Below, in pieces: positions 1 to 35,391 of a DNA stretch of 38,107 nt (its first letter is position 1; each line of letters opens with the position of its first letter). This DNA is from Candidatus Altimarinota bacterium (GTDB taxonomy: Bacteria; Patescibacteriota; Gracilibacteria; BD1-5; UBA2023). The translations under genes were made by a program, and so were the position numbers. Under the pieces are notes generated by a model. The model worked only from the letters and a program-made list of their open reading frames with translations. It ran no database searches and was not told the DNA's origin. The DNA lies in contig JAYUQR010000045.1 of the NCBI GenBank assembly GCA_043756665.1, forward strand, positions 1 to 38,107, read 5' to 3'.

Positions 1-315
1 AAAAAAGAAACATGAAAAGGAAAAATGGTATTCAACTGGTTTGAATGGAAAAGAGATAGTGCAAAAGAATATAAGAAAATCCACCCTACCCAAAAACCAG
101 TAAATATCTTGAAAAAGATTATTGAGATTTTCACAGACGAATGAGATGTTATAATTGACCCCGTAGCATGATCGTGAACAACTTTACGCGCGGCGATGGA
201 ACTTAATCGGAATTCATACGGATTTGAGATAAAAAAAGAATTCTATAATTCCGCAAAAGAACACATGATAAATAAACCCGTACAAAAAGAACTACTATTA
301 TCTGATAATCTATAA
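1..315 (+). CDS. DNA methyltransferase (N6-adenine/N4-cytosine type), 3' portion; the 5' portion is at 37569..38107
   Basis: Frame 1 is open from nt 1 to TAA 313-315 when TGA=Gly. It encodes ...[52 protein letters not shown], with the HPTQKP motif and the AdoMet motif FxGSGTT. Motif glycines at 142-144, 169-171 and 175-177 are TGA codons. Confidence 0.85.
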
Positions 316-609: not shown

Positions 610-978
610 ATGAAATGTACTTACTGTATCGAGAAAGAAAAAGACTGGTCGGAAGATAATTCACCGATCGAGTGTGCTTTTTCTTCCTGATTATTTCATC
701 AAGATAATTGGAATTGCTGACTTATGGATAAGCTCCGTGATCAGGCAGAGAAAACTTCTGTATGGAATGATGATATGTATGCGTGAATAATGCCGTATTC
801 TATCGATAGACATGACGAAGTCTACTGAACAGTAGATGATGACTCTGGATATCTCTATCTCGAGTGGTACAAGTCGAGAGGGAAGACTGATAAATGTATC
901 GATATGGACACTATTGAACCACTCAGCCTCGATAAAGCGTATGAGATATGTCTCTTCATTAAAAAAGTAATATGATAA
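610..978 (+). CDS. hypothetical protein (122 aa) with N-terminal CxxC
   Basis: ATG 610, TAA 976-978, several in-frame TGA. Product MKCTYCIEKEKDWSEDNSPIECAFSSGLFHQDNWNCGLMDKLRDQAEK...; tightly packed between neighbours. Confidence 0.6.
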
Positions 979-1712
979 ATACGCTAATAAATGGAGATTG
1001 TCTTGAGATAATGAAAAGGATACCTGATAATAGTATTGATTTAGTGCTCACCGATCCACCCTACTGAACTACTGCTTGTAAATGGGATTCTGTAATAGAT
1101 TTTGACCTAATGTGGAAAGAACTCAAAAGAATTATAAAATCAAACGGAGCTATTGTATTATTTTGAAGTGAGCCCTTCTCCTCAGCTCTCCGTATGAGCA
1201 ACATAAAACAATATAAGCACGACTGGATATGGGAAAAAGATGCAGGAAGTAATTTTCAAACTGTTAAATATCAACCAATGAAGGAGCACGAGATAATATC
1301 AGTATTCTGAGAATGAAAGATAAATTATTTTCCAATAATGCAAGAAAGAATAGGCAGTCGAAAATGAAAAGAAACTACCACAATAGATAGTGGAAGAACA
1401 AATAGTGTATATTGAACTATGGAATGAGGGAAAAGATTATTTGTACCAGAATTGAGAAATCCAAGAAGCATACAGCGATTCAATAGAGAAAGATGAATAC
1501 ACCCCACTCAAAAACCAGTAGCACTTCTGGAATATCTTATTAGAACATATACAAACGAGTGAGAGATGGTGCTAGACTTTACAGCCTGATCTGGAACAAC
1601 AGGAGTAGCTTGTAAAAATACCAATAGAAACTATATCCTGATAGAAAAAGATCCAGAGTATTGTGAGATAATTAAAAAACGATTATCTAATACAAATTCA
1701 CCACTATTCTAA
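972..1712 (+). CDS. DNA methyltransferase (N6-adenine/N4-cytosine type, DPPY motif before AdoMet motif)
   Basis: Product MINTLINGDCLEIMKRIPDNSIDLVLTDPPYG...[41 protein letters not shown]. Motif IV DPPY is at 1053-1064, followed by TGA (Gly) at 1065-1067. Motif I has TGA at 1587-1589. Stop TAA 1710-1712. Confidence 0.9.
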
Positions 1713-2649: not shown

Positions 2650-3387
2650 TTATACATTTATCATTTTACTCCTGTTTTTGATCGCTACAGGCTGTATATT
2701 TTCGGGTAAAAGTATGAAAAAACATTGAGATTGCCAAACGGTTTTGAGTAGTGATCGAAAATTGAATATCTTATATTGATTTCCTACTCGTCCCTCATAA
2801 TTATCCTGCATATTGAAATACGTCCAGATTGGTCATATTCACGACATAGAGATACAGTGACCATATTGTCATTTTTTGAGTGTTTCAGACTCACTTGCAG
2901 AGATTTCACCATCCGATCGAGCTCTCGAGTATTCTGTACCAGTCCAGTATCCAGTGATGACGGGTATATTTCTCTGTAGACATCCACTCATGACACTCGA
3001 TCCGTACTTTATACGAGTATTCCATACCTTCCGATCGGGGAATCGAGTATTCATATATGCGACGAATTCAGAACCTATAGCAGATACATATCATCATTTT
3101 TTTGGATGCCATACTCATTTTGCTTCCAAGTGATCACAGAGGCCATACATGATTTTAGTAAAATCTTCTTTAGGATTCCATAATGAGAACCAAGCTCTGA
3201 GGTGAGAGGCGATCACACATGAATACCAGAATCGTTCTGTATTCCCCTGATTGAATCCTGTATAGACTCATGGAAATTTAGGCATTCTTGCTATGAGGCG
3301 GGTGAGTTCTTGCTCATCTCCTCCTGCTATCATCTCGGTATCGAGGGAGTCATCTCATATAATTCCTGAGTATTCTGGATTGATCAT
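2650..3387 (-). CDS. putative cysteine peptidase (candidate endolysin), 245 aa
   Basis: ATG 3387, TAA 2650-2652; extends track ORF 2869..3054 through TGA on both sides. Candidate catalytic residues are Cys (NTERFWYSCVIASH) and His (GQYGHCISMSG). It is the last gene of the late operon, after a run of membrane proteins. The function is inferred, not recognised with certainty. Confidence 0.6.
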
Positions 3388-3584
3388 TATCTATAAGGGT
3401 TAAGTTTCTGACGAGCGAGTATAAACGCAATATCCTGACGTACTTTTTGTATCTCATCGGCAAGCTGATTCATCGCCTCTCTATGGAGATCCATCTCGTG
3501 ACCATGCAAGTGTCATGCAGTTCTGAGCATATGAGCGTATTCGATTTCCTTCTCGGTGAGCTCTAGTTGTTTAGCGAGGTACAT
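3387..3584 (-). CDS. hypothetical protein (65 aa)
   Basis: ATG 3584; TAA 3387-3389 overlaps the next ATG (TAATG). Product MYLAKQLELTEKEIEYAHMLRTAGHLHGHEMDLHREAMNQLADEIQKVRQDIAFILARQKLNPYR. Confidence 0.5.
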
Positions 3585-3585
3585 A

Positions 3586-3747
3586 TTATGTATCAGAGTT
3601 ATGATAGATATGGTAGTCGAGGACTTGTCATGGTTCGAGTTCTCCTAGTTCCTCCTCTCTGAGGAGCCTATATACTTGTTCACGTGTGAGAGGAAATCGT
3701 ACATATGGTTTCGGTACTTCTGTGGGATTATTGCGTGGCCTTTCCAT
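3586..3747 (-). CDS. hypothetical protein (53 aa)
   Basis: ATG 3747, TAA 3586-3588. Product MERPRNNPTEVPKPYVRFPLTREQVYRLLREEELGELEPGQVLDYHIYHNSDT. Confidence 0.5.
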
Positions 3748-3748
3748 A

Positions 3749-3985
3749 TTAAGTATATCTTTGAAGTAAACGATCTTTGAGCTTTTTGATCTCTTCTACA
3801 TGGATATGATACCTGATTCACTGAGCTTTACAGTTCTTATCCTCACCGCATACCTCTTGTGTGAGTCACTGTATTTTCTTGATTACACTTTCTATACGAG
3901 CTTCACATTCTTTGCGTGATACTCATTCTTTCTGACATACCGCTACATTTCATAGATAGAGTTGTTCGATTGCTTGCGTGTCCAT
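3749..3985 (-). CDS. hypothetical protein (78 aa)
   Basis: ATG 3985, TAA 3749-3751, four in-frame TGA. Product MDTQAIEQLYLGNVAVCQKEGVSRKECEARIESVIKKIQGLTQEVCGEDKNCKAQGIRYHIHVEEIKKLKDRLLQRYT. Confidence 0.55.
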
Positions 3986-7262: not shown

Positions 7263-10200
7263 TTATTTTTTAGGCTTTATGATGGGCTTATTTTTGATGA
7301 TGGGTTTAGGTTTTAGAAATTCTCATAATTTTTCTTTTATAGCTTTTTCTACTATCGGTTTTATTTTACTTTCAAATATTTCTTTATTCCATTGTGCTGC
7401 TTCTTCTCTAATTTTTATATGTCATTTTGACTCAGCAACATATTGTTCAATCATTCTTGCGGTTACTTCTTGTCTATTAGTATAATATTTTCTATTATTT
7501 TTAAATGCAATGGTATTTTTGTTCATTAACTCAGTAAGCTCATTTATTGTAGTATTATCAAATAGTTTTTTGTCTAATTTATAATCTATCGCGTGTCATA
7601 GCTCGTGAGCTACTGTTGTATGTATTTTCTCTTTAATTATTTTTCATTCAGCGTCTTTCATTACTCTTCAATATGTATCTAATTTTTCAAAAGATTCAGT
7701 TCATCAGACCGATATACTTACACTATTATTTTTTGTATCTTTTCTATATAATCAGGCTATATCTTTCATTAAAAAAGGATTTTTACCATTAAGATGTACA
7801 TACACCCATCTATCCATCTCAGCAAGTTTTTTCATATCTATTCCTAATGCCTCAGAAAAGTCTTTCACACCATTTATTATATCTGATTTTTGTTCAGTAG
7901 ATATAGTTTTTCAGTCTTGGCGTTTCATTCACGCTCAAATAGAATCTATATCATCAAATACTATACGTGAGTCATCCGCACCAAATGAAGTATTCAGTCA
8001 TTTTTCATATATTTCTCGTGATGTAACTGCCTTGGAAAATGACGGATCATATTTTATTATTTCATCTGGAAATTTATATCATTTTGATATATCGTTTTTA
8101 ATAAGCTCAGTATATTCTTTTTTTGAGCTTTCTTTAAAATAATCACTTGTATCAATTTGTCGTTGCCACATATCTGTTCTTCTTTCAAAAAGAGATTTTG
8201 CCTCATTAAATGTTTTTGCACTGCTACTATTAGCTTCTATGTTTGCCCATATTTTTCTATCTTCGATTATTGTTGGAGAGTTTAATTTTTCAGCCTGTAG
8301 TCTGGTAGGCATTTTCTCTCAATATTTTTTTATTAACTCGTCTACTTGTTTTGCCATTTTTCAGAATCCTTCTGCATTTCTATTAGCTTTTTTAATTTTT
8401 ACATCTATTACTCATTGTATTCACTCTTCTGGAGTTAATTTATGGTGTGCAACTCTATCTGGTGATATTCTTTTTGCTCCTACTCTTTTTGCTTCATCTC
8501 AAACATTTATATTTTCTGGCAATGTTTCTATAATTTTATTCTCAATAACTCCACCCTCTTTCACTATATTCTTAGGAGCTGGCTTCACGATAGGAGTGTT
8601 TTTAGTCTTTTTAGGTACTATGAGAGGTTCTGAGGGAGCGGATGGTGTAGTAGGCTTTTTAGTGATCATTCCATCCTTTCAAAAGCTTTCGAAAGAAGTA
8701 TCCATAATATCCATTCCCGTCTGCTTTTTGAATTGCTTTACCATATCATTCCATGTCTTCTCTCAAAATCTTCCGTCGTTTGCTATTTTTTGGAGTTTAT
8801 CATAGATCTGCTTGTCTGTGATCTTTTCTATCACCTCTGGAGCTTGTTTCTTATTGAGAAGATCATCAAACGCGTTTTTTATTTTTCACGATTTTATATC
8901 TGATATGAATTCATCGAGAAGATCCTTTTTTACATAGCTATATTCGAGACTTCCAGAGTCTACACTTTTCTTTATTTCGGAAAGTATTGAAAGAGCCTCA
9001 CTTTGTGTGATCTTTTTTTCTGATAAGAGGTTATTAATCTTAGTTTCTATGCGAGAGTTTCATGTGCCTCAGAATTGAGCCGCTTTTGTATCACTAGCAA
9101 TACCCCTCTTTATATCATTTATTTCCTTTGATTTTGCGACTTGAGAGGTTTTTGTTTGAGCTGGCAAAAGCCTTCTCGGTCATTGTCACTCGACCATAAC
9201 CCCCCGCTTTCATGCAAGGATTTTAGATTGATTTCCTTTAGGATTAAGTGGTGTTTCAATAGTTACCTTGGATGATCATGGAATATCGGAGGGCACACTT
9301 ACCACTGTTGGGGTTACATTTTCCCGTTTAGTACGAGGAATATTACCAGTATTATTGCTATTATGTATACCATCTTTAAAAAGGTTAGTGGGTATTTTTA
9401 CTTCTGCCTGTGTGCCTCTCCCAGAAAGTGCGTTTAATCCTTTGAGGTATCATCTCTTTACTATATTGGATTGTGCGATCTGTTTTGCTATAAAGACTGA
9501 AGGATCAGCATTGAACGCAAGCCAATCAGTCAATCATAGGGGATTGTTTCCTGCTATCTTATCTTGCCATCATCCTATACCTTCCATAAGCTTATAATAG
9601 GCTTTTGTATCCATATTTATGGCTTTCAGGTTTGAGAATCCCTGTTGTTCTGCTGTCGCAAATTGCCATTTTCTCACATCATTATCTAAATTCGTGACGA
9701 ATCATTTTCTTGGTGAAGTGTCGTCGCTAAAGTATGAGAACTTATTATTCGAGTTTAAGAACCTTTTAGCCTCATTTATTTCTGACATAGAGAGACCTTG
9801 TGTCTGATACTTTTCGAGAAGATCTTTAGCTCTTAGGCTTTCTTTACTCATTCATTTACTCGACGCATTTCCGAGATTATCCCTAAGCATTGTCTCTACA
9901 GGATCAACTTGCTTTGTGATATACTTTCATGTTTCCTTATCTATTGCTTCTGTAGCAACTTCTTGAGTCGGAGCCTTGAAATTTCACTTGATACTAGCAA
10001 GTCCATCATCTGCCGACTTTCGTGAAAGTTTAAGGTTTTTTGATAAATTTTCAACTAATTTTTCTCCAGTGTCACTTATTCATCGATCATTAAGAAATTT
10101 TCAAGGGCTCACTCCAATTTCTTCGTTAAATGAGCGGATCTGCCCTGCATTCATCCTATTTATATTTGTAGAGGCTATATCTGCTCTATTTTGTAGTCAT

Positions 10201-11114
10201 TTCTGGAGTCAATCTTTGATTCAATTTCAAGCTCATTGGAGATCACGAACTATAGACTTTCCTGCACCCTCAATCCCTCCATAATATCATGCCTTTCAAT
10301 ATTTCATTGTCTTAGAGGCTACTCATCATATTATTGGAGCTACTACTTTAGACATAACTGGTCATGCTACTGCTCCAGTAACTCATCATATTGCTGCCCC
10401 TTTTCATATATCCCATAAAGTAGCCTCATTCCCTTTATTTATAATCGGTGTAGCTCAACCGAATCATGTTCCTACTACTCCCGATCGAAATGCGAGATTT
10501 CAGAGTCATTTTGCTCAGGCTAGATATCCGCCTCATAGAGGAGCTGTGAGGGCTAATTGTCAGCCAAGTTTTCTCATGTCTATTTGCTTCTGTGTGAGTG
10601 GATTTGATCCACCATCTGTCATGCCTGCTTGTGTGACATCATTTCCTATATTTTGGAGGTTCTGTCAAAGATCATTAGCTCATTTTCAGAGTCAAGGCGT
10701 TATATAATCAAGTCATTCTCCTATTGTATTTCCTACGAATCAGAGTCAATTTCATACGATAGAAGGGATTTGTTCTCATGCCCTCACTATTCCTTTTCAT
10801 AATTCCTTTGCTCATCACCAAAATCAGAGATCAGGTCATTCTTTTGCCTGCTGTTTTTTATCCTGTAGGAATTGGAATACATCCTGTGCTGGGAGTCATT
10901 TACCTTTTGAGTAATCAATAAATGCAATATCTTTTTCGTCGAATCACATTGATTTGAATTGTGAGTTTCGATCTGTCTGTATAGGCGATTGTTGTACATT
11001 TTCAGGATATGTAGATCATGATGAGTTTTTTACAGGAGCATAGGCATTCTTTGTTATAGAGTCAAAGAGGTTAAATCCTGTATTTTTTGAGAATGTTGGT
11101 ACCTCGTATGACAT
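7263..11114 (-). CDS. giant virion-associated protein (1283 aa): Gly-zipper hydrophobic region plus C-terminal HExxH zincin-like domain; candidate ejection/polyvalent-type protein
   Basis: I translated every codon from ATG 11114 to TAA 7263-7265 and found no TAA/TAG but dozens of in-frame TGA. Glycine-zipper segments (…LGGQLALTAPLGGGYLAGAKGLG…GVVGTGFGGATPII…GAAIGGVTGAVAGPVMSKVVAPIIGGV…) lie near 10261-10620. TVAHELGHAID (HExxH) is at 7593-7607 with its Gly encoded by TGA 7596-7598. The plus-strand track ORF 8239..8805 is its antisense shadow. Confidence 0.85.
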
Positions 11115-11115
11115 A

Positions 11116-13965
11116 TTATTTATTGTAAAGAGACTCAAACGATGAATACATATCATTTAGGTTTGTATTCATATTTCCTTGCTGAGATTTGGTGATTCAC
11201 TTTTCCATATCGGAATTTCTATATATCTCAGAAATGTCATTTCCATTTTCATCACGTCATACTTCCTTTAATATTCAGAGTGTAGCGTTGTACCTATTTT
11301 TTCTTTTTTGATCTATAGCTGAGGCACTATCTCCTGATTGGGGAAAATATTGTTGTCTTGCATTCGCAAATTCAGGATCCGTAATCACCGCTCCTGATTC
11401 TTTACGCAGGTTTGCATTTATCCAATCTCTTTGTGCCTGTTCATACTTTTGCCTATCGTTTGTCTTCATCCAGTTAGGAGCCCATCCACTTGGGGCTAAA
11501 ATTTCTGTTGTAGCCCATGAGTTTTTATATTTATCTTCCATTGTCCTGATAGGATTTTCAGATTCTGACATACGAAGCCCGAATTTATATGAAGCCCTTG
11601 CTCATTCTGTAGTTTTTGGTGCGAGTACTACATCATATAGAGATTTCGGAGTATTAGCTCATCTATTGGAACGTACATAATTAGCAAGATCAGTATAAGA
11701 TAATCATGCCTTATTCATTGCATCTAGGTCTGATTTCGTTGGATTATTACCAATAATATCCATAAGATTCTTTTGATCCTGTGTGAATGCCTTTTGTGCT
11801 CCACTTGATGAATTAGTCAGTCCTTTCAAAAATGTCACCTGATCAGAATTCGAAAGAAGTTTTCAGTTTGATTTTATTTCTATATCGAGGTGTGCTCCTC
11901 TTCATTTCGCGAGCTGTTCGGCGGTGAGTGTTTCTCCACTTACTCCTCTCACATTTCCTGTATTGCCACGAGTTCCGACTATATCACCATAGCCGAGTAC
12001 ATCACCTTGTTTTACCCCTATATTTTCTAGGTGTGAGTATCTGATTTCATTTCCACTTTCGTCGGTCATGATAACAGAGTTTCAATATGGTTTCTTCATT
12101 CATGCCTTGTACGGCACTCAGAGCTCTCACGCTTTATCGATATATTTGACTGTCCAATTTCCACCTGCTGGCAAAGGATCTCATAGATTTCCTGCAAGAT
12201 CATAGCCTCGATTTCATTCATATGTTCCTACATTCTTTCCGAGAATATCAAGAAATGATTTACTCGATTGTATTTTTTGTTCGAGCTCTAGGGCTTTCGC
12301 CTTCTTTTCTGGATCATTTTCTATTTCGAATAAGAATTTTTCCCGAGCTGAGTCATTATTGAATTTAGCGAGTTGCATCTGCTGTGAAAAATTTCTTGTA
12401 TCTCTTTGATTTTCGACTTCATTTTGCATTTGAAATTTCTGTGCATCTGACAATTGCCCCTGTTGAAGGGATTGATATTTCTGATATGCTGGACTTGCTT
12501 GTATATTCTGCCCCATTTCAGTCAAGAACTCTGCAAGAGGTTTTCCACTCTTTTGAAACTCTGCGAGACGAGATTGTACTGTACTTGTAAATGGAATTCC
12601 GAGCTTTTTGTACTCGTTCATAATACTTTGTATGGCTGTTGCAGGATCACTCAATGCCTGCTGTGCTTGTTTACTTTCGAAGTCTGATTGGTACTGCATC
12701 ATATCTTTCTGAGCTTGTACTTGGCGTTGTTCACTTGCTATCTGACGTGACTGAGCCTGCTGATCTTTGTAGTTATCCATATTTAGCTGGAGGAGTGCTG
12801 TCGATTCTGCTTTGAGATTCGTATAAGTACCCATAGAGTTATTATATTCATCTATTGCGATCTGGTAGTCTTTGTACATTCCCTTTCTTCGGTCTGCTAC
12901 GATCTTAGCTTTAAATGAATCGGTTGTTTCTTTTCACTCGAATTCCTTGTCTACATCAGTTTCGACATTATCGTATACTGCCTTGATATTCTGATACTTA
13001 TTCTTTTTTTCTTCCACCGCTTTGCCTTGTGCCTGAACTGCCTCGTTATTCGTGAGAGCATTATATTCCTCCTGTGTCATTGTCCCATCTGCGAGGGCAT
13101 TAGCGACACTTGGATTGTTCGAGAGGATTATAGATGATTGCGTTGTTCCTATTTTTACCTCGTCTATATTTCCAGTGACAAAGGCTTTAGCTTTCTGGAG
13201 CTTTGTACTCATAGCAGGATCACTCATGAGATCATTATAGGTAGTAGTACCTTGTAGTAAGTCTCCACTATTGAGAGCTGTCGAGAGTGTCGCTGGATCC
13301 ATGAGAGAAAACCTCTTGAAAGTATTATATCGAGCATTTGCACTACGATATTCATTCGTATTTTGATTCTGGATAGGCTGTCATGCACGAATAGCCTGAA
13401 ATGTCTGATCTGCTGTCATGGCTATCGGTTGTCAGCCTGTGAATCCTGCATCGAGCATAGCCCGTTTTCCATCATCTGCCATATCATATCCGAAGGCTTT
13501 ATTATAAGCATTCCTATCTTTGAGAAGAGCGGGATTAGCTGTAGTTATCTCAGTAACATTCTTTTGTATCTCACTCTCTCTGCCTTGCGACTTATTATAG
13601 TCTATGACTGGATTTGTACTCACTTTTGTCTCACTTGGCCTTATTTCTTGAGCTACTGGAGCTACTGGAGCTTGTATTTGAGAAAGCCCTGTAGACTGAT
13701 CTATAGGTGCTTGTGTGAATTGTTCTCAGTTTACTCCCGTGACTGTCGGAGCTACTGGAGTTGGAGTGACTGGAGCTGGCGGTACGATAGGATTCGCTTG
13801 TCTTTCTGCCTGATTTTTAGCCAGTTGATCCTGATTGATCTGAGAATTTGGAGTGACTGGAGCTGGCGGAGTTATCTCACCATATGCCTGAGTTCTCGCT
13901 GTGACGGGATCAATTCCACTCTTTCTGAGTTTTATGAATTCATCTCGTGGATTAGTCGTTGCCAT
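11116..13965 (-). CDS. large Gln-rich coiled-coil protein with M23/LytM-like peptidase domain (949 aa); internal virion or tape-measure-like
   Basis: Track ORFs 13726..13965, 13432..13623, 12934..13302, 12214..12879 and 11275..11571 share one frame. All gaps translate without TAA/TAG. ATG 13965, TAA 11116-11118. The M23-like block is NRGYDLAGNLGDPLPAGGNWTV...YGNSVIMTDESGNEIRYSHLENIGVKQGDVLGYGDIVGTRGNTGN...GAHLDIEIKSNGKLL. Confidence 0.85.
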
Positions 13966-16900
13966 TGTTGGATTGATTAGATTTTATTTCAGATTCGATT
14001 TCATTGGCTTCTTTCTGTATTTGTGATTCGATGTCATTTTCTATCATGTCAGCCTCTTGTCCTATTATCTTCTCTATTTCGTCTTCTATATCATTTGCCT
14101 CATCTTCTATCATCTTTTTTATTTCTTCTTCACCATCGACAAGTTTTTTGGTGTTTTCATCTATCTTCTTTGTCTTTTGCCTCACGAGATTCCTCGTCAT
14201 GACATTATCTTCCTTCAATTCCTTTTTACTTCTCACTATATCACTGCATACCTCGATTTCTATTTCTTTTAGTGTATCAATTATATCGTCTTTCGCAAGA
14301 ACATTTTGTGACTGATTTTCATCTATTTTTTCTATGATTTCAGTGATGTCTACGTTCTCTATAGTTTTTACCTTTTCGAGGGTTTCTACTATGTTTTTTC
14401 GGTCTTGCATGCTGAATAATCAACCATTTCATCATCCACCTCCTCATCCAGTGATAGTTCTATTTGCATAATTCCATATTTGCTCTGGTGTTGCTCCTCC
14501 AGTGCTTGCAGAAAGAAATTTGACTCATCCATTGCTGTCATCCACTGCGATTCCATCTTGTCCTGTAGCGAATGCGAGGAGTGTTGCCTCTCCATCTCCT
14601 GCACTTCGTCTATAGAGTCTCCATCCGCTCGACATAAAGAGATAGTTCCCTCCGAACGATAGGAAGATACTACATTCTCATCGTACAGTTAACCATTTCA
14701 TGCCGAGATTCGTCATCAGAGCGGTCTCTGTCATATCGAACGCATTTTGTGCTGAAACAGATCAATCTCCTATTTGGATATTCGCTTGTGTTGTTCCTGA
14801 TATGACGATAGTACAGAGAACTGAGCTTGTACCCTGATACATGGCTGTACCGTCTGGATTGAGTTTCTGTGGTGTACTTGCTGATATATTGAACTGTCAT
14901 CCAGTGACTGGTGTGAAAGTCCCTACCTGATACGTATATCCTGCCTTTTTAACTACATATTTCCATGTGCCCGTGAGGACATTTGATAGGAAATAGTTAT
15001 ATGTTCCAGTGATACTCGCTTGGTAGTCCTTCTGTACACCTGTTTCATCTTCGAGATATATGGCGTGACCTGAGAGTCATGAGATATTCAGGTATCCTGT
15101 CTTTCCGTTTGAGGCTGTGATGATAGGAGTACTCGTCGAGGTTCCTGTGACTGTAAGAGTACCTGTCGTTGTGAGATTAGCAGTTCCAGTGAGATTAGCA
15201 TTCGTGAGAACGATATTGAAGGTAGAGGTATAGTTGATCGAGTCAGTCGTGACAAGTGGGATATTGAAATCCATATTCGCTATCTGCCCTCCCCACCGCT
15301 GAGAATAGGCGTAGAGCTCATCTTTAGTCCTATTCTCTGTTACTGTCATTGTATTAGTTGCTCCATTGATAGATATTCCTGTGATGAGTGAAGCCACTGC
15401 ATCATCGATAGCGACATAGAGAACCTGTGATATAGGCACTCCCTTTCCTTTCTGATATGTAGAGTCTGTCGAGATCACCTCTCCATATCCACTCTTTCGG
15501 ACTTTTACCTTGAATGGTTTTGCGAGAGCATCGAAATTATAGGGAAAATCGATAGTTATTGCATCGGCTGTGATGACTTGAGTTTTAACTGCTACTGGTG
15601 ATGCTGGTACAGTATTATCATAGAGTTTTATAGTAGAGCCATTTACTTGACCTGACACGAGAAGTGGCACAAAACCTATTTCTTCTGGTACCCATGCACT
15701 ATCTGGAGTACATGTCACGTATCCATAGTTGAATATTCGTGTCGCTCCTGCTGTTGTTGTCTTGATTCTAAAGCGAGGGAAAAATCCTTTTGTACTATTG
15801 TATCCCGTGAGTGATGCGAGAGCAGTCTGCCAGTTCGCTGATACTGTAGGATTGAACCATGATGTCCATGTCGAAATATCTGTACCATCATTATTGCGAA
15901 ATGATACTTCCATCGTAGCTCCTGCACTATTCATGAGTGAGTGAGTGATCACGGCTGTCGCTCAGGTAAAGTCTGTAATTCATCGCACGGGATACTCATT
16001 TGTATATATAACCTCCACTCCTGCACTCGGAGCATAGAATCCATTTCATGAATAATAAAAATCTACTCACTCGACTCCTGATGCGATCGTGACTCGCTTT
16101 GATTTGAGATCTTTAGAGAGTGGAGTAATACAGAGCCTTCCTGCTGTTTTCGCGTTATTCGTCCATATAGGCTGGAATGGATTAGAATCGACGATGACCG
16201 TACTCAAATAGACTCATGATGAGTTCATCACCCACTCTACATATGTTCCATTGATAGCTCCTGCCTGTGGTTGTGGAGTATTAGCATAGAGATTGGATAT
16301 TCGTGACTTTCCATAACTCGATGATCCTGTATAGAGTCATACTCTCGGATTTGAAACATTGATATTCGCGACGTATCATCTGGCTCATCCTGTAGCTATT
16401 GCAGTCGATGCGTTGGATTGCATATCATAGACTATATCTTTGACACAAAATTGATAGCTTGCTCCATCTGCTGTGATGAGAGATCCCCTTCATGAGACTC
16501 CATTTGTGAATTTTCTTGCTTTTGCAAGAGTGAAATTTTTACTCCCAAGTGATCCAAAGATTTGCCCTTGAAGTGTGTTCAATACCGCACGAGTATTATC
16601 ACTATGAGTGATCTCGTTGATATGGATATTATCGCACTCTCTGAGATAGAAAAATCCTCCGATATTATAAATCGGTCATAATATACAAGGAGCTTCCTCA
16701 CTGTTTAGGAGTGACTCGACCATGACGGGATAGCATCATGCTACCGTAGAGGATCCCCATCACCATATATTCGAGAATTGTTTCGGGGGTAGAGTATTAT
16801 AGACCTGTATTCATGGAGCATAGGTGCTTGTGGTCTTATACATTCCCCATATGAAATCATAATAATCGTTTCATGGGCTGTTCACCATACCGAAAGAGTA

Positions 16901-18025
16901 AGCACTACTTGCGAGAGCGAGACTTATATCTGGTCAGCTTACTACATTTGTCATGCGAGTCACTCATGACCACGATCAGGATTGAAATCTCTGACATGCG
17001 ACACTTGTCATAGTTATATCACCTGCTAGGGAGAAGTTGTTGATATTCCAGTTCGAAGAAAATGCACATATGCTCATAGTGGCGATAGATCCCAAAATGA
17101 CAGTGAGTGTATTTCTATTCGCAGGAGTAGGAGAATATACAGTTGAAGTGATATGGATATTCGGATAGAATACTCTCGCTCAGTTTGGTATTACCGCTCA
17201 TCCGTTCGATGTACCGACTGCACCACCATTTCAGAAAGTAGCTATTTTGGTTGTTCTATTGAATCTAAAGACTGGTCAGTGATCGAGATCACCGTGAAAT
17301 TCTGTATTGATATTAATATTTTGTACGTCGAAATCAGGAGCTGTATTGAGTCCATTACCAGGTCAGCAGTTAAAGAAGGGCATTGCATAGCAAGGCATTT
17401 GAGGTGGCGGAGGATTTGTGATATAGTAGTGACGAGTATCCCCTGTTTCTATCCATAGAGCTGTAGGCGAGTCTATGAGTCATCCCATGACAGTAGTGAA
17501 ATCTATAGTCTGTCATGCTGAACCTGTCCCAGTAGCTATATGTAGCCATCTTCCATCTGTGTTTATTTTATTTGTTGAGTATGTGATCCCTATATCTGCA
17601 TTCTCAGTATTGAGCTTGAGGACTATCGGAGTGGTAGTACTTGTATTACAGATATTGAGTGTACTTCTTGAGCCGAGTGTATTACATGTGATATTTCCTG
17701 GATTGATTGTATTTGACTCAGTGACATCGAGAGAACATCCACTCGTCATGTTCAATATTTCGCCTGCTATATAGGTGATTCCGTTTATATGAGCTCTTAG
17801 TTCTACGGTTGAAAATGTGATAGTTAGATCACCTGTTCCAACCAATCGCGTTAGAGTGCTTCCAGAAGTCACTGAATTCGCTACCGCAGTACAATAGAGC
17901 CTTGTCCCTGCAGAAAGTGTTTTCCTCACCGTATATGTGACTCAGTTGTTTGTATACGTATCTCCTACCGTTGCATTGGCAGAGGTCACCGTGAACATGT
18001 AGTAGGTATTGTTTACGGTTGCCAT
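13952..18025 (-). CDS. tail fibre / tailspike-like protein (1357 aa) with Gly-run hinge and acidic coiled-coil C-terminus
   Basis: Track ORFs 17513..17929, 15077..15952 and 13952..14410 are in the same frame. I translated all intervening sequence and found no TAA/TAG. The first ATG after the upstream TAG is 18025 (alternative 17998); stop TAA 13952-13954. The product is Thr/Ser/Asn-rich beta-type sequence. It includes a TGTWKYVVKKAGYTYQVGTF beta-sandwich-like segment and ...ATPEQIWNYANRTITGGGGGGGNGGLFSMQDRK... before a 152-aa acidic tail. Confidence 0.8.
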
Positions 18026-21538: not shown

Positions 21539-22408
21539 TTAAATAAAGTATGCGACTGCAACCTTAGTGAGGTTAGTAGTGAAGATATTTCCTCCATATA
21601 CAATTTCTGTAAAGACGTTCTTGAAGTTACCGTCGATACCTTCCATTGATTTGGTTCCATAATCCTCAGTTACTACATTTACACAACCCTTTTCCATCAT
21701 AATCATTTCGTTTGAGGCATTGAGTGCCGCACTATAGATGATAGGTGTGGATGAATACATTCCGAGATAACCCTCCTGAAGCATTCCATTACCCAATTCT
21801 GTATTAGTCAGAAGCTGAGCTCGAAGATATGCATCTTTGAGGCGAGAGCCAACAACACATACACGATCCTGAGATGTGTATGTTTCATCGAGTGCAACGG
21901 TTAATTGTCCGAATACTTGGACGATGGAAGAAGTGGCGATAGCGATTGGAGCACCTGAGTTGATTTTATTGGCTGCTGCAATCGATGCAATCTTATCCAC
22001 GAGGATGAGATCACGAGCATAGTTGTCCATGAGTACATCCTTAGCCTGTGCGAGATTCTTTCCGATAGCAAGCTCAAGAGGAACTTTAGAATGCCTAGAT
22101 TGAAAGTCTGTAATTTTTTCAAGGTATGGAGCATACTTTGAGAGGGTAAGAGGTTCAAGCGAAAGAGTTGTATTGGAAGGGGTGATTGATTGTCCTGGAC
22201 CTGTTCCGAGTGTCATTCCCGATGCACCTGTAATTGATAGTCAAGTGAGTACAATATTTGTCATAACAGGAACAAATACGATTGATGCACGTCCCTGTAG
22301 TTCTCCCTGATATTCAGTAGAGAGGTAAGGAGCGAATGAAGATTTCTGCTGATTGAGTCTGCGTACCTCTGATTTGAAGACATTATCGCTAAAAACTGGT
22401 GATGCCAT
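21539..22408 (-). CDS. major capsid protein (289 aa)
   Basis: Track ORF 21539..22216 extends upstream through TGA to ATG 22408; stop TAA 21539-21541. Product MASPVFSDNVFKSEVRRLNQQKSSFAPYLSTEYQGELQGRASIVFVPVMTNIVLTG...GYLGMYSSTPIIYSAALN...VAVAYFI. The composition, size and position after a scaffold-like gene fit a coat protein. Confidence 0.8.
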
Positions 22409-34445: not shown

Positions 34446-34518
34446 TTTTATATATATGACAATACAAGATATTAGTTCTGGTTCTGGTGATGGTTTTGGT
34501 GATGGTTCTGGTTCTGGT
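34406..34518 (+). repeat. duplicated block, copy A (upstream region plus first 21 codons of the Gly-X gene)
   Basis: The 113 nt starting gatacgagcgaggttc...tttaattttatatatATGacaatacaagatattagttct... recur at 35132..35244. The only difference is the 8-nt patch aattgaat versus gaggggat. Confidence 0.9.
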
Positions 34519-34725
34519 TCTGGTTTTGGTGATGGTTTTGGTTCTGGTTCTGGTTATGGTTCTGGTTCTGGTTCTGGTTATGGTTCTGGTTATGGTGATG
34601 GTTTTGGTGATGGTTCTGGTGATGGTTCTGGTTCTGGTTCTGGTTCTGGTTTTGGTGATGGTTCTGGTTCTGGTTATGGTTCTGGTTCTGGTTATGGTTA
34701 CAGAAATTCGGTTACTATTATTTAA
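34456..34725 (+). CDS. (Gly-X)n repeat protein, 89 aa (X = Ser/Asp/Phe/Tyr)
   Basis: Product MTIQDISS + 36 perfect G-X dipeptides + G + YRNSVTII; TAA stop. It has the same AT-rich start context as neighbouring genes. Conserved non-repeat N- and C-termini are shared with the paralog at 35182..35391. Confidence 0.65.
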   Translation: MTIQDISSGSGDGFGDGSGSGSGFGDGFGSGSGYGSGSGSGYGSGYGDGFGDGSGDGSGSGSGSGFGDGSGSGYGSGSGYGYRNSVTII

Positions 34726-35131: not shown

Positions 35132-35244
35132 GATACGAGCGAGGTTCGAGGGGATCATTTTAGATATTTAATTTTATATATATGACAATACAAGATATTA
35201 GTTCTGGTTCTGGTGATGGTTTTGGTGATGGTTCTGGTTCTGGT
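35132..35244 (+). repeat. duplicated block, copy B
   Basis: See copy A at 34406..34518; the offset is 726 nt. A second shared block (ggttacagaaattcggttactattatttaaattttatatatatg) lies at 34696..34739 and 35362..35405. Confidence 0.9.
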
Positions 35245-35391
35245 GATGGTTTTGGTGATGGTTCTGGTTCTGGTTCTGGTTATGGTTCTGGTTCTGGTTC
35301 TGGTTATGGTTCTGGTTTTGGTGATGGTTTTGGTGATGGTTTTGGTGATGGTTCTGGTTCTGGTTACAGAAATTCGGTTACTATTATTTAA
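35182..35391 (+). CDS. (Gly-X)n repeat protein, 69 aa, paralog of 34456..34725
   Basis: Product MTIQDISS + 26 perfect G-X dipeptides + G + YRNSVTII; TAA stop. Confidence 0.65.
   Translation: MTIQDISSGSGDGFGDGSGSGDGFGDGSGSGSGYGSGSGSGYGSGFGDGFGDGFGDGSGSGYRNSVTII

Follow-up and report, generated by a model that had tools for sequence, protein, structure and literature searches.

A cluster of four TGA glycine codons within a probable linker between two exchangeable modules of a tailspike-like protein in a code-25 phage

Introduction

Phages that use genetic code 25 and carry dense in-frame TGA codons have already been described (Liu et al., mBio 2023, PMC10746230). This code is that of Absconditabacteria (SR1), Gracilibacteria and their phages, and the DNA studied here (the window, by which we mean the whole stretch of 38,107 nucleotides that was analysed) shares its characteristic signs: in-frame TGA codons are dense, the genes collapse under code 11, and TGA is aligned with Gly in homologues. 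In these respects nothing essential is different in the window.

Several described tail proteins resemble the product of one gene in this window, a spike gene of 1357 codons. In the shuffling of phage tail fibres and tailspikes, a low-complexity Gly joint lies at the point where homology switches, and one module is found behind many N-terminal domains; both features are likewise seen among the relatives of the window protein. In most receptor-binding proteins, however, the N-terminus is constant, whereas in the family of the window the C-terminal module is constant and the N-terminal part varies. A further likeness is to the podovirus tail needle (P22 gp26, SU10 gp18), in which a long helix carries an additional domain that varies, as appears to be the case here. 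In SU10, the gene of the nozzle gp17 is followed by that of the coiled-coil tail needle gp18 and then by the genes of ejection proteins, and the needle itself consists of a coiled-coil domain and then a C-terminal beta-prism domain (PMC9509320). A needle gene is thus located between hub or nozzle and ejection genes including a peptidoglycan hydrolase, and the window would have the same order if its 479-aa protein is the hub. In contrast to SU10 gp18, the polarity in the window is reversed, with the presumed coiled coil at the C-terminus, and a poly-Gly hinge takes the place of a rigid junction, with an attached domain that can be as large as a predicted beta-helix spike of 1190 aa.

Peptidase_S74 (endosialidases, T5 pb1) and phi29 gp12 provide examples of a conserved, partly helical and dispensable C-terminal add-on, and the C-terminal module of the window resembles them in these points. 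Unlike the S74-type chaperones, it has no family match and no evident conserved cleavage motif of the Ser-Lys type; it also makes up nearly the whole protein in one relative (L015), and each genome has a single copy of it, at a fixed locus. There is in addition a superficial likeness to Q-beta A1 read-through, lambda G/GT and T7 10A/10B, where stop-like codons are found at a domain boundary. In contrast to such programmed dual-product genes, the TGA codons in the window are no stops, their site is unconserved, and no stimulatory RNA structure accompanies them. A preliminary description of the window had suggested that a cluster of four TGA codons in the spike gene might lead to two forms of the protein. 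Our analysis indicates that this cluster is most probably incidental, being neither a hidden gene boundary nor a regulatory signal.

Results

The window belongs to a podovirus-like, short-tailed phage with an SU10-type portal and code 25 (UGA = glycine); in a Pfam scan its portal protein matched PF23899 (SU10_portal). The host is presumably one of the Absconditabacteria or Gracilibacteria. A scan of genome contigs returned one 1-kb contig, binned as Saccharibacteria, which is too short to inform on the host. With TGA as a sense codon, the longest ORF in the window is 1369 aa long, compared with 295 aa under code 11. When the window was aligned with its relatives, residues opposite its TGA codons were G in 48 cases, TGA in 32 and W in one, and in the reverse comparison the TGA codons of the relatives were aligned with G (59) or W (3) of the window. 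These alignments indicate that TGA is Gly here, neither Trp nor stop. Code 4 (TGA = Trp) was ruled out by the same tallies (48 vs 1 and 59 vs 3). This code is common in database gene calls, as seen from W residues inside the Gly runs of P0001-P0053.

In the 16 confident genes of the window, TGA accounts for 219/599 Gly codons (37%) and ranks among the two commonest Gly codons; its share in the spike gene is 26%. The four TGA codons of the spike had been called the densest cluster, but this does not hold: a Gly-rich stretch of TerL contains four TGA within six codons (26046-26029, tga tga gca gga tga tga), and two further clusters, each of four TGA in ten codons, are found in the gene at 7263-11156. 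The major capsid genes of the phage group use TGA for only 3/129 Gly codons, compared with 105/237 in tail-hub genes (p about 1e-20), which hints that UGA-Gly is disfavoured at the highest expression. No tRNA genes, and hence no tRNA-Gly(UCA), were found in the window, and a check of 25 of its gene starts revealed no Shine-Dalgarno motif.

The 1357-aa product is a mosaic tailspike-like virion protein in which TGA is read as Gly, and its features are listed in Table 1. Its N-terminus, MATVNNTYYMF, is matched at the start of about 30 full-length homologues. The fold was tested on a homologue in place of the window protein, namely P0055, which shares 60% identity with the query along 82% of its length. 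The AF2 model of P0055 is all-beta (pLDDT 87.8, pTM 0.75), and its top Foldseek match in PDB is 7w1d (E 3.7e-6, prob 1.00), whose description is that of a polysaccharide lyase specific for the Klebsiella K1 capsule; the phage phi297 tailspike 4ru5 was also matched in PDB (E 3.3e-5), as were, more weakly (E 3e-3 to 0.1), further phage tailspikes and fibres. The model suggests a tailspike or depolymerase fold (right-handed beta-helix) for the spike body. The conserved N-terminal domain of the body might already serve as a virion anchor. Searches of Pfam and PHROG with the 1357-aa spike and with its C-terminal module matched no family, an IMG/VR pattern scan with the whole protein confirmed no relative, and tblastn with the last 248 aa of the spike gave no match in GenBank phages. 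The beta domain at residues 1089-1177 is also present in homologues without the acidic module, and the peptide that follows it precedes the linker in most module-bearing relatives.

Table 1. Features of the spike gene and of its downstream neighbour in the window
Feature	Position	Strand	Details
Whole spike gene	13952..18025	-	ATG 18025, TAA 13954-13952; 1357 codons, 34 in-frame TGA
Tailspike-like body, residues 1 to about 1088	14762..18025	-	Basis: model of homologue P0055
Predicted make-up of the body	14762..18025	-	Conserved N-terminal domain, right-handed beta-helix, Ig/transthyretin-like domains
C-terminal beta domain, residues 1089-1177 (SVSAQNAFDMTETAL...VKFLSASTGG)	14495..14761	-	Alignment with P0054 and P0060
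Motif ATPEQIWNYANRTIT, residues 1178-1192	14450..14494	-	'IWxYxxRTLT' peptide
Hinge GgGGGggNGg (g = TGA), residues 1193-1202	14420..14449	-	9 Gly in 10 residues
Internal ATG, Met1206	14408..14410	-	Three codons (tta ttc agc) past the hinge
Acidic module M1206-D1357, 152 aa	13955..14410	-	53 homologues; two alignments
Predicted single long alpha-helix, ~127 residues	13964..14344	-	AF2; about 19 nm if straight
949-aa protein with M23 peptidase domain	11116..13965	-	ATG overlaps spike stop (ATGGCAACGACTAA)

Direct reading of the minus strand from 14449 to 14420 gave gga tga gga ggt gga tga tga aat ggt tga, followed three codons later by an ATG, exactly as in the preliminary description. The junction of the fused parts is spanned by TITGGGGGGGNGGLFSMQDR. 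In the window proteins with 120 aa or more, a decapeptide containing six or more Gly is found just once, namely GGGGGGGNGG. Four TGA among nine Gly codons are to be expected because TGA already makes up 37% of the Gly codons: the probability of at least four is 0.43 at this usage, and 0.19 at a usage of 26%. The outlier at the hinge is hence the amino-acid run, and the codon choice is unremarkable.

We then compared the homologous Gly-rich linkers of 12 distinct relatives, which contain 0 to 5 TGA at varying positions (0 in L002, 2/10 in L001, 1/7 in L004). L007 and L017 have 3-4 TGA within the nine codons directly before the module, and three of the four linker TGA of L007 are aligned with GGN codons of L002. 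TGA forms 31/89 Gly codons in the linkers (35%) vs 128/473 in the rest of the gene (27%; Fisher p = 0.16). The linker of L002 and L011, STGGGFIRNTG, has zero TGA, so that there the fusion is valid under any code. No RNA structure beyond chance was detected at the hinge (131-nt fold, -15.4 kcal/mol, z = +0.70), and neither a terminator nor an upstream promoter was found at this site. In an alignment of 37 homologues, the relatives have I, A, S, T or N in the column of Met1206, and by this comparison ATG 14410 most probably encodes just an ordinary internal Met. As no checked gene start has a Shine-Dalgarno motif, the missing one at 14410 is uninformative.

The ORF was confirmed to have 1357 aa and to end in an acidic, TGA-free tail of 152 aa, with 43 D+E vs 23 K+R, a pI of 4.4 and no Pro. 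The absence of TGA is expected, because the tail has merely three Gly codons, and the idea that it carries a special meaning was dropped for this reason. The core motif of the module reads ...EVCSDIVRSKKELKEDNVxTRNLVRQKTKKIDEN..., in which N, T, R, L and K are invariant. An AF2 monomer model from a 38-sequence alignment, with a query of 155 aa, consists of one helix from residue 26 to residue 152 (pLDDT 88, pTM 0.36), and a heptad scan showed partial periodicity with a moderate signal; the helix is presumed to be a coiled-coil rod. The module profile had no matches among PDB sequences at E <= 1, and the single-helix model had none in BFVD by Foldseek, as expected with one helix. Homology to the needles P22 gp26 and SU10 gp18 was found neither as a PDB sequence match nor as a BFVD fold match. 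The family is rare, with 97 cluster representatives (E <= 1e-3) among 1.84 billion, a number that includes matches to the N-terminal-domain columns of the profile alone. The module HMM detected one copy per locus, which was C-terminal in every case. All members of this small, uncharacterised family that were found here are from TGA-recoded phages.

The module shares one ORF with the N-terminal part in 13 distinct relatives (the 12 of the linker comparison and L014). The preliminary description had proposed a search for TAA or TAG between the two parts in relatives, and no such codon separates them in any of the 13. P0054, which is the closest homologue over the full length (64% identity), has no acidic module at its end and is encoded at another genome position; besides P0054, about 25 spike-body homologues are devoid of it. 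The window spike, P0054 and P0060 are alike up to FLSxSxGG and then continue into three different tails. The module is present in P0068, L007 and P0103, and it was also found behind unrelated N-terminal domains. In L015, an N-terminus of roughly 20 aa is followed by the module, so that this protein is essentially the module alone, and in the small relatives the module accounts for at least 60% of the protein. Judging from these alignments, body and module would be exchangeable units in evolution, with the poly-Gly linker as the seam of swapping.

The gene order in the window is 479-aa protein, spike gene, 949-aa M23 protein and 1297-aa protein. L007 and L017 likewise have the module gene between a gene of the 479-aa type and the M23 gene. 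The order of module gene and M23 gene is also kept in L001, L005, L006, L007 and L017, where the two genes mostly overlap, with a 10-nt gap in L005 and L006. A gene for a large M23/CHAP protein lies directly downstream of the module gene in every locus whose downstream genes were examined. The putative hub of 479 aa had no match among PDB sequences, and the argument for a needle from synteny is therefore based on gene order only.

Discussion

Taken together, these comparisons make it probable, at about 80%, that the locus encodes one fused polypeptide, in which the TGA cluster is incidental and the Gly linker serves as the seam between modules. The ribosome would pass the four TGA as Gly codons and produce a single 1357-aa protein, and the proposal of a fusion through a flexible Gly hinge is upheld in this form. 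The 10-residue poly-Gly linker would be both a flexible joint and a recombination seam between two modules: a beta-helix tailspike-like body, probably receptor-binding, which related phages have without the tail, and an acidic C-terminal unit predicted to fold as one long helix. This helix would most likely assemble into a parallel oligomeric (trimeric) coiled-coil rod, and the module may in itself be a structural part of the tail, such as a stalk, needle or docking element, to which Gly linkers attach N-terminal domains that vary. Codon usage and amino-acid composition would account for the density of TGA, for the ATG close by and for the TGA-free tail. Some cleavage may occur at the linker, as may a truncated product in small amounts.

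Such a structural role is suggested by the SU10-needle-like gene position, immediately before the gene of a large, peptidase-bearing protein of the ejection type, together with the near-solitary occurrence of the module, and we propose the function of a structural rod tentatively, at somewhat worse than even odds. A poly-Gly joint is odd in a rigid needle, and speaks against the needle reading, as do the reversed polarity, the lack of a match to any needle and the N-terminal domain of the body as a possible anchor. The preliminary description had considered that the acidic tail acts as a chaperone or assembly module, and it is indeed conceivable, although rather unlikely, that it is a C-terminal intramolecular chaperone that nucleates spike trimerisation and is cleaved off near the Gly linker. 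Its conserved C-terminal place behind many unrelated N-terminal domains, its separation by a flexible linker and its helical AF2 model would fit such a role, as would the gene order, which is shared with phi29, where gene 12, for an appendage whose C-terminal auto-chaperone is cleaved off, is followed by gene 13 (M23 peptidase tail protein). However, neither a Pfam match, Peptidase_S74 included, nor a PDB sequence match was obtained, and P0054 and the other body homologues do without the module. It also dominates the small relatives, and since L015 is essentially all module, nothing is left there to chaperone. Moreover, there is one module per genome at a fixed locus, and not one on each fibre. 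The balance leans towards a structural or oligomerisation role over that of a chaperone.

The suggestion that the TGA run is decoded inefficiently, or that Met1206 initiates, to give shorter forms (a spike without its tail, a free acidic protein or both) besides the fusion, is improbable. What speaks for it is the avoidance of TGA in capsid genes, because UGA-Gly may be costly and some pausing at the TGA run is then possible; in addition, the internal AUG has an A/U-rich context in a phage whose gene starts have no Shine-Dalgarno motif, and TGA runs precede the module in L007 and L017 too. Against this, the linker TGA are conserved neither in number nor in position and are not significantly enriched over the rest of the gene, Met1206 is replaced in relatives, and the site is without RNA structure, terminator or promoter. 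Inefficient decoding is further at odds with the denser run that is tolerated by the essential TerL. RF2 is reported missing from code-25 hosts, and a slow UGA would consequently stall the ribosome and not end translation. We give a similarly slight chance to pausing at TGA runs of module boundaries (e.g. 14446-14420), by which the spike body would fold or trimerise ahead of the emergence of the coiled-coil module, or a small share of tail-less protein would arise through ribosome drop-off. Least credible of all is that TGA is a stop here, in the context of the standard code or code 4, and that a separate acidic protein is made from ATG 14410. Databases do hold module-only calls, P0002 (152 aa) and P0023 (149 aa), but these are artefacts: the frame stays open upstream in L008 and L009, either across TGA or as far as the contig reaches, and includes the usual IWxYxxRTLT motif. 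The earlier statement that the standard code yields two genes, for a fibre and an acidic protein, was loose, since code 11 breaks the upstream part at 30 further TGA and turns the whole phage into fragments. The alignment of TGA with Gly, and a junction in L002 and L011 that is open in every code, likewise favour the fused protein.

In summary, these results do not overturn current understanding, and their main value is for annotation, as a TGA run beside an ATG mimics a gene boundary in code-25 phages. Public gene calls split off the acidic module, and P0023 was named 'signal transduction histidine kinase' by JGI. The avoidance of TGA in capsid genes bears on the efficiency of UGA-Gly decoding, and the comparison of relatives defines poly-Gly linkers as probable seams for the swapping of tailspike bodies and the helical module.

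Results

When TGA is read as sense, the spike gene extends on the minus strand from ATG 18025 to TAA 13954-13952 and comprises 1357 codons, 34 of them TGA. Direct reading of the sequence bore out every coordinate in the preliminary description, together with the lack of TGA in the acidic tail, in which 43 residues are acidic, 23 are basic and none is proline (pI 4.4). The hinge and ATG 14410 are separated by tta ttc agc. Under the standard code the longest ORF in the window is 295 aa, and with TGA as sense ORFs of 1369, 1298 and 956 codons appear. Where window genes were aligned with ORFs of related contigs, window TGA codons stood opposite Gly 48 times, TGA 32 times and Trp once; in the reverse direction, TGA codons of the relatives stood opposite Gly 59 times and Trp three times. 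Because of these ratios, TGA is, on alignment evidence, Gly in this phage (code 25). The same tally ruled out code 4 (TGA as Trp), used by many database gene calls, which place W inside Gly runs. A search for tRNA genes in the window found none. Earlier work has described phages that are rich in in-frame TGA and use the same code as their Absconditabacteria/Gracilibacteria hosts (PMC10746230). The gene content (large terminase, SU10-type portal [PF23899], M23 peptidase protein and a weak major-capsid match) is that of a tailed phage, probably a short-tailed one.

Features of the window and major capsid genes of related loci
Feature	Position	Strand	Remarks
Hinge	14449-14420	-	residues 1193-1202 of spike; gga tga gga ggt gga tga tga aat ggt tga
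Acidic tail	Met1206 to Asp1357	-	152 residues, zero TGA
Major capsid, window	21539-22408	-	TGA 1/22 Gly codons
Major capsid, L002	2304-3188		TGA 0/25 Gly codons
Major capsid, L005	3434-4351		TGA 1/24 Gly codons
Major capsid, L007	4147-5064		TGA 0/26 Gly codons
Major capsid, L001	3246-4457		TGA 1/32 Gly codons
GTTCTG hexamer array	34475-34699	+	~37 copies
GTTCTG hexamer array	35201-35365	+	~27 copies
DNA methyltransferase	972-1712	+	DPPY motif; TGA 10/18 Gly codons
Second, partial methyltransferase-like ORF	25-315	+	left window edge; HPTQKP motif

In 16 confident genes, 219 of the 599 Gly codons are TGA (37%), on a par with GGA; in the spike gene the share is 26%. At such frequencies, the probability of at least four TGA among the nine Gly codons of the hinge is 0.19 to 0.43. 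Contrary to the preliminary description, the hinge is also not the densest cluster: the terminase gene TerL holds four TGA in six codons (26046-26029, minus strand; tga tga gca gga tga tga, encoding WDLGGAGGGDE), and the gene at 7263-11156 (minus strand) has two more clusters, each with four TGA per ten codons. The absence of TGA from the tail is expected, since the tail contains only three Gly codons. Among all window proteins of at least 120 aa, GGGGGGGNGG is the sole decapeptide with at least six Gly; the hinge is thus an outlier in peptide composition, not in TGA choice.

Several further observations were made. The TerL run forms the GGAGGG of HWDLGGAGGGDETAIW and lies inside an essential enzyme. 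The gene at 7263-11156 encodes a 1297-aa protein whose N-terminal third is rich in Gly; of its 126 Gly codons, 73 (58%) are TGA. A C-terminal HExxH motif (TVAHELGHAIDY) points to a putative zinc metallopeptidase domain. In-frame translation of both GTTCTG arrays yields (MVLV)n-like ORFs in which TGG codons are frequent. In the major capsid genes of this phage group TGA makes up 3/129 Gly codons, versus 105/237 in tail-hub genes (p ~1e-20), and its share in portal, peptidase and spike genes is 26-68%. This near-absence suggests a bias against UGA-Gly in the gene with the highest expression.

Used as a query, the last 269 residues of the spike matched 53 proteins, mostly of 200-426 aa. Their N-terminal domains differ widely and are followed, usually, by IWxYxxRTLT, often by AGLTTEEHxKLFSLENS, then by a Gly-rich stretch and the module (...EIDSHNSLAKDEIIDTIKETETEVCSDIVRSKKELKEDNVxTRNLVRQKTKKIDEN...). 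We retrieved 16 module loci, representing 13 distinct sequences, and translated them anew, reading TGA as Gly, as far upstream as the preceding TAA or TAG. In all 13, the module and the N-terminal part share one ORF with neither stop between them, in agreement with the proposed fusion; the refuting case named in the preliminary description, a genuine stop separating the two parts in relatives, was thus looked for and not found. Two module-only database proteins, P0002 and P0023, are gene-calling artefacts, as the frames at L008 and L009 extend upstream via TGA or to the contig end. JGI named P0023 (L009 348-797), a standard-code gene call of the module alone, 'signal transduction histidine kinase'; this looks like a mis-annotation that stems from use of the wrong genetic code and from the coiled-coil composition.

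The linkers themselves vary. That of L002/L011, the closest relative overall, is STGGGFIRNTG; it is free of TGA, and the junction therefore stays open whichever code is used. In the homologous linker of L007, IgGgVgMNAg (g = TGA), three of the four TGA stand opposite GGN codons in L002. Across 12 distinct relatives the linker holds 0 to 5 TGA, and the pooled TGA share is 31/89 in linkers versus 128/473 elsewhere in the genes (p = 0.16).

An HMM of the module matched exactly once per locus, always C-terminally, and every locus of more than 5 kb shows TGA recoding. The family is small, with 97 cluster representatives among 1.84 billion at E <= 1e-3, a count that takes in matches confined to N-terminal-domain columns of the profile; a match that covers the module ends at the protein C-terminus. 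The module found no match in Pfam, PHROG, PDB sequences or BFVD folds. AF2 (38-sequence alignment) predicted one unbroken helix of ~127 residues (pLDDT 88, pTM 0.36), and a moderate heptad signal is present. In L015 (131-646), ~20 N-terminal residues (MATITSTTSG..., like the L007 spike N-terminus) lead directly into the module; this 1-kb contig is binned, probably wrongly, in a 'Saccharibacteria' MAG. In the loci whose downstream genes were examined (window, L001, L005, L006, L007 and L017), the gene directly after the module gene encodes a large peptidase protein of M23 or CHAP type. The two genes usually overlap, by 14 nt in the window (13952-13965, minus strand; ATGGCAACGACTAA) and by 11-29 nt in L001, L007 and L017, which suggests translational coupling.

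The first 1192 residues of the spike have ~30 full-length homologues (1143-1418 aa). Many carry Gly, not Trp, at TGA positions, and may therefore come from standard-code contigs. We judged the body fold on the homologue P0055 (60% identity across 82% of the query), whose AF2 model is confident and all-beta (pLDDT 87.8, pTM 0.75). Its best PDB match is the Klebsiella entry 7w1d (E 3.7e-6), annotated as a K1 capsule-specific polysaccharide lyase, followed by the phi297 tailspike 4ru5 (E 3.3e-5) and, more weakly, further phage tailspikes and fibres (E 3e-3 to 0.1). Because of these matches, the 'fibre' is better read as a predicted beta-helix tailspike-like receptor-binding protein. The C-termini of its homologues are mosaic. 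The window spike, P0054 (the nearest homologue to the spike body, 64% identical, also TGA-recoded) and P0060 have in common the last beta domain up to FLSxSxGG; thereafter P0054 ends in LTIEQATQLANTVKKGDVILNKGSISIPL, P0060 in another tail, and in the window spike ATPEQIWNYANRTIT follows, then the poly-Gly run and the module. The 8-kb contig carrying the P0054 gene lacks the module. Downstream of that gene (L016 396-4592) lie one for a DUF1353 protein and homologues of small genes that the window has at 3387-3985, neighbours that put it at a different place in its phage's genome. Large spikes with the module occur in P0068/L017, L007 and P0103.

Discussion

The preliminary description had raised the possibility that the spike is made in two forms, through inefficient decoding of the TGA cluster or internal initiation at ATG 14410. 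We found no support for this reading: the TGA count of the linkers varies, with no significant enrichment, and the residue aligned with the Met is I, A, S, T or N in relatives. At the hinge we found no RNA structure (z = +0.70), and no terminator or upstream promoter. Shine-Dalgarno motifs occur at none of the 25 window gene starts checked, and their absence at 14410 is thus uninformative.

As for the module, we infer that it would act in the tail in its own right, as an oligomerising structural rod and not as a disposable spike-folding aid, because it has a fixed place beside the peptidase-protein gene, is single-copy per locus, stands nearly alone in L015 and is missing from the closest spike homologue. 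An intramolecular chaperone, as in phi29 gp12 and S74 domains, is a live rival. SU10, which has the same portal family, encodes in this order nozzle gp17, the coiled-coil tail needle gp18 and peptidoglycan-degrading ejection proteins (PMC9509320). The window module gene occupies the gp18 position, with a 479-aa upstream protein as only a putative counterpart; however, module and gp18 are of reversed polarity and share no homology, and the needle analogy is weak.

Taken together, the sequence finding at the hinge is real and its meaning ordinary. It is well supported that its TGA codons are plain Gly codons in one polypeptide, and that the hinge is a flexible linker and, since the C-termini of homologues are mosaic, a recombination seam of module exchange. 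Judged by homologues, the two parts joined there are independent modules, found elsewhere in other combinations.
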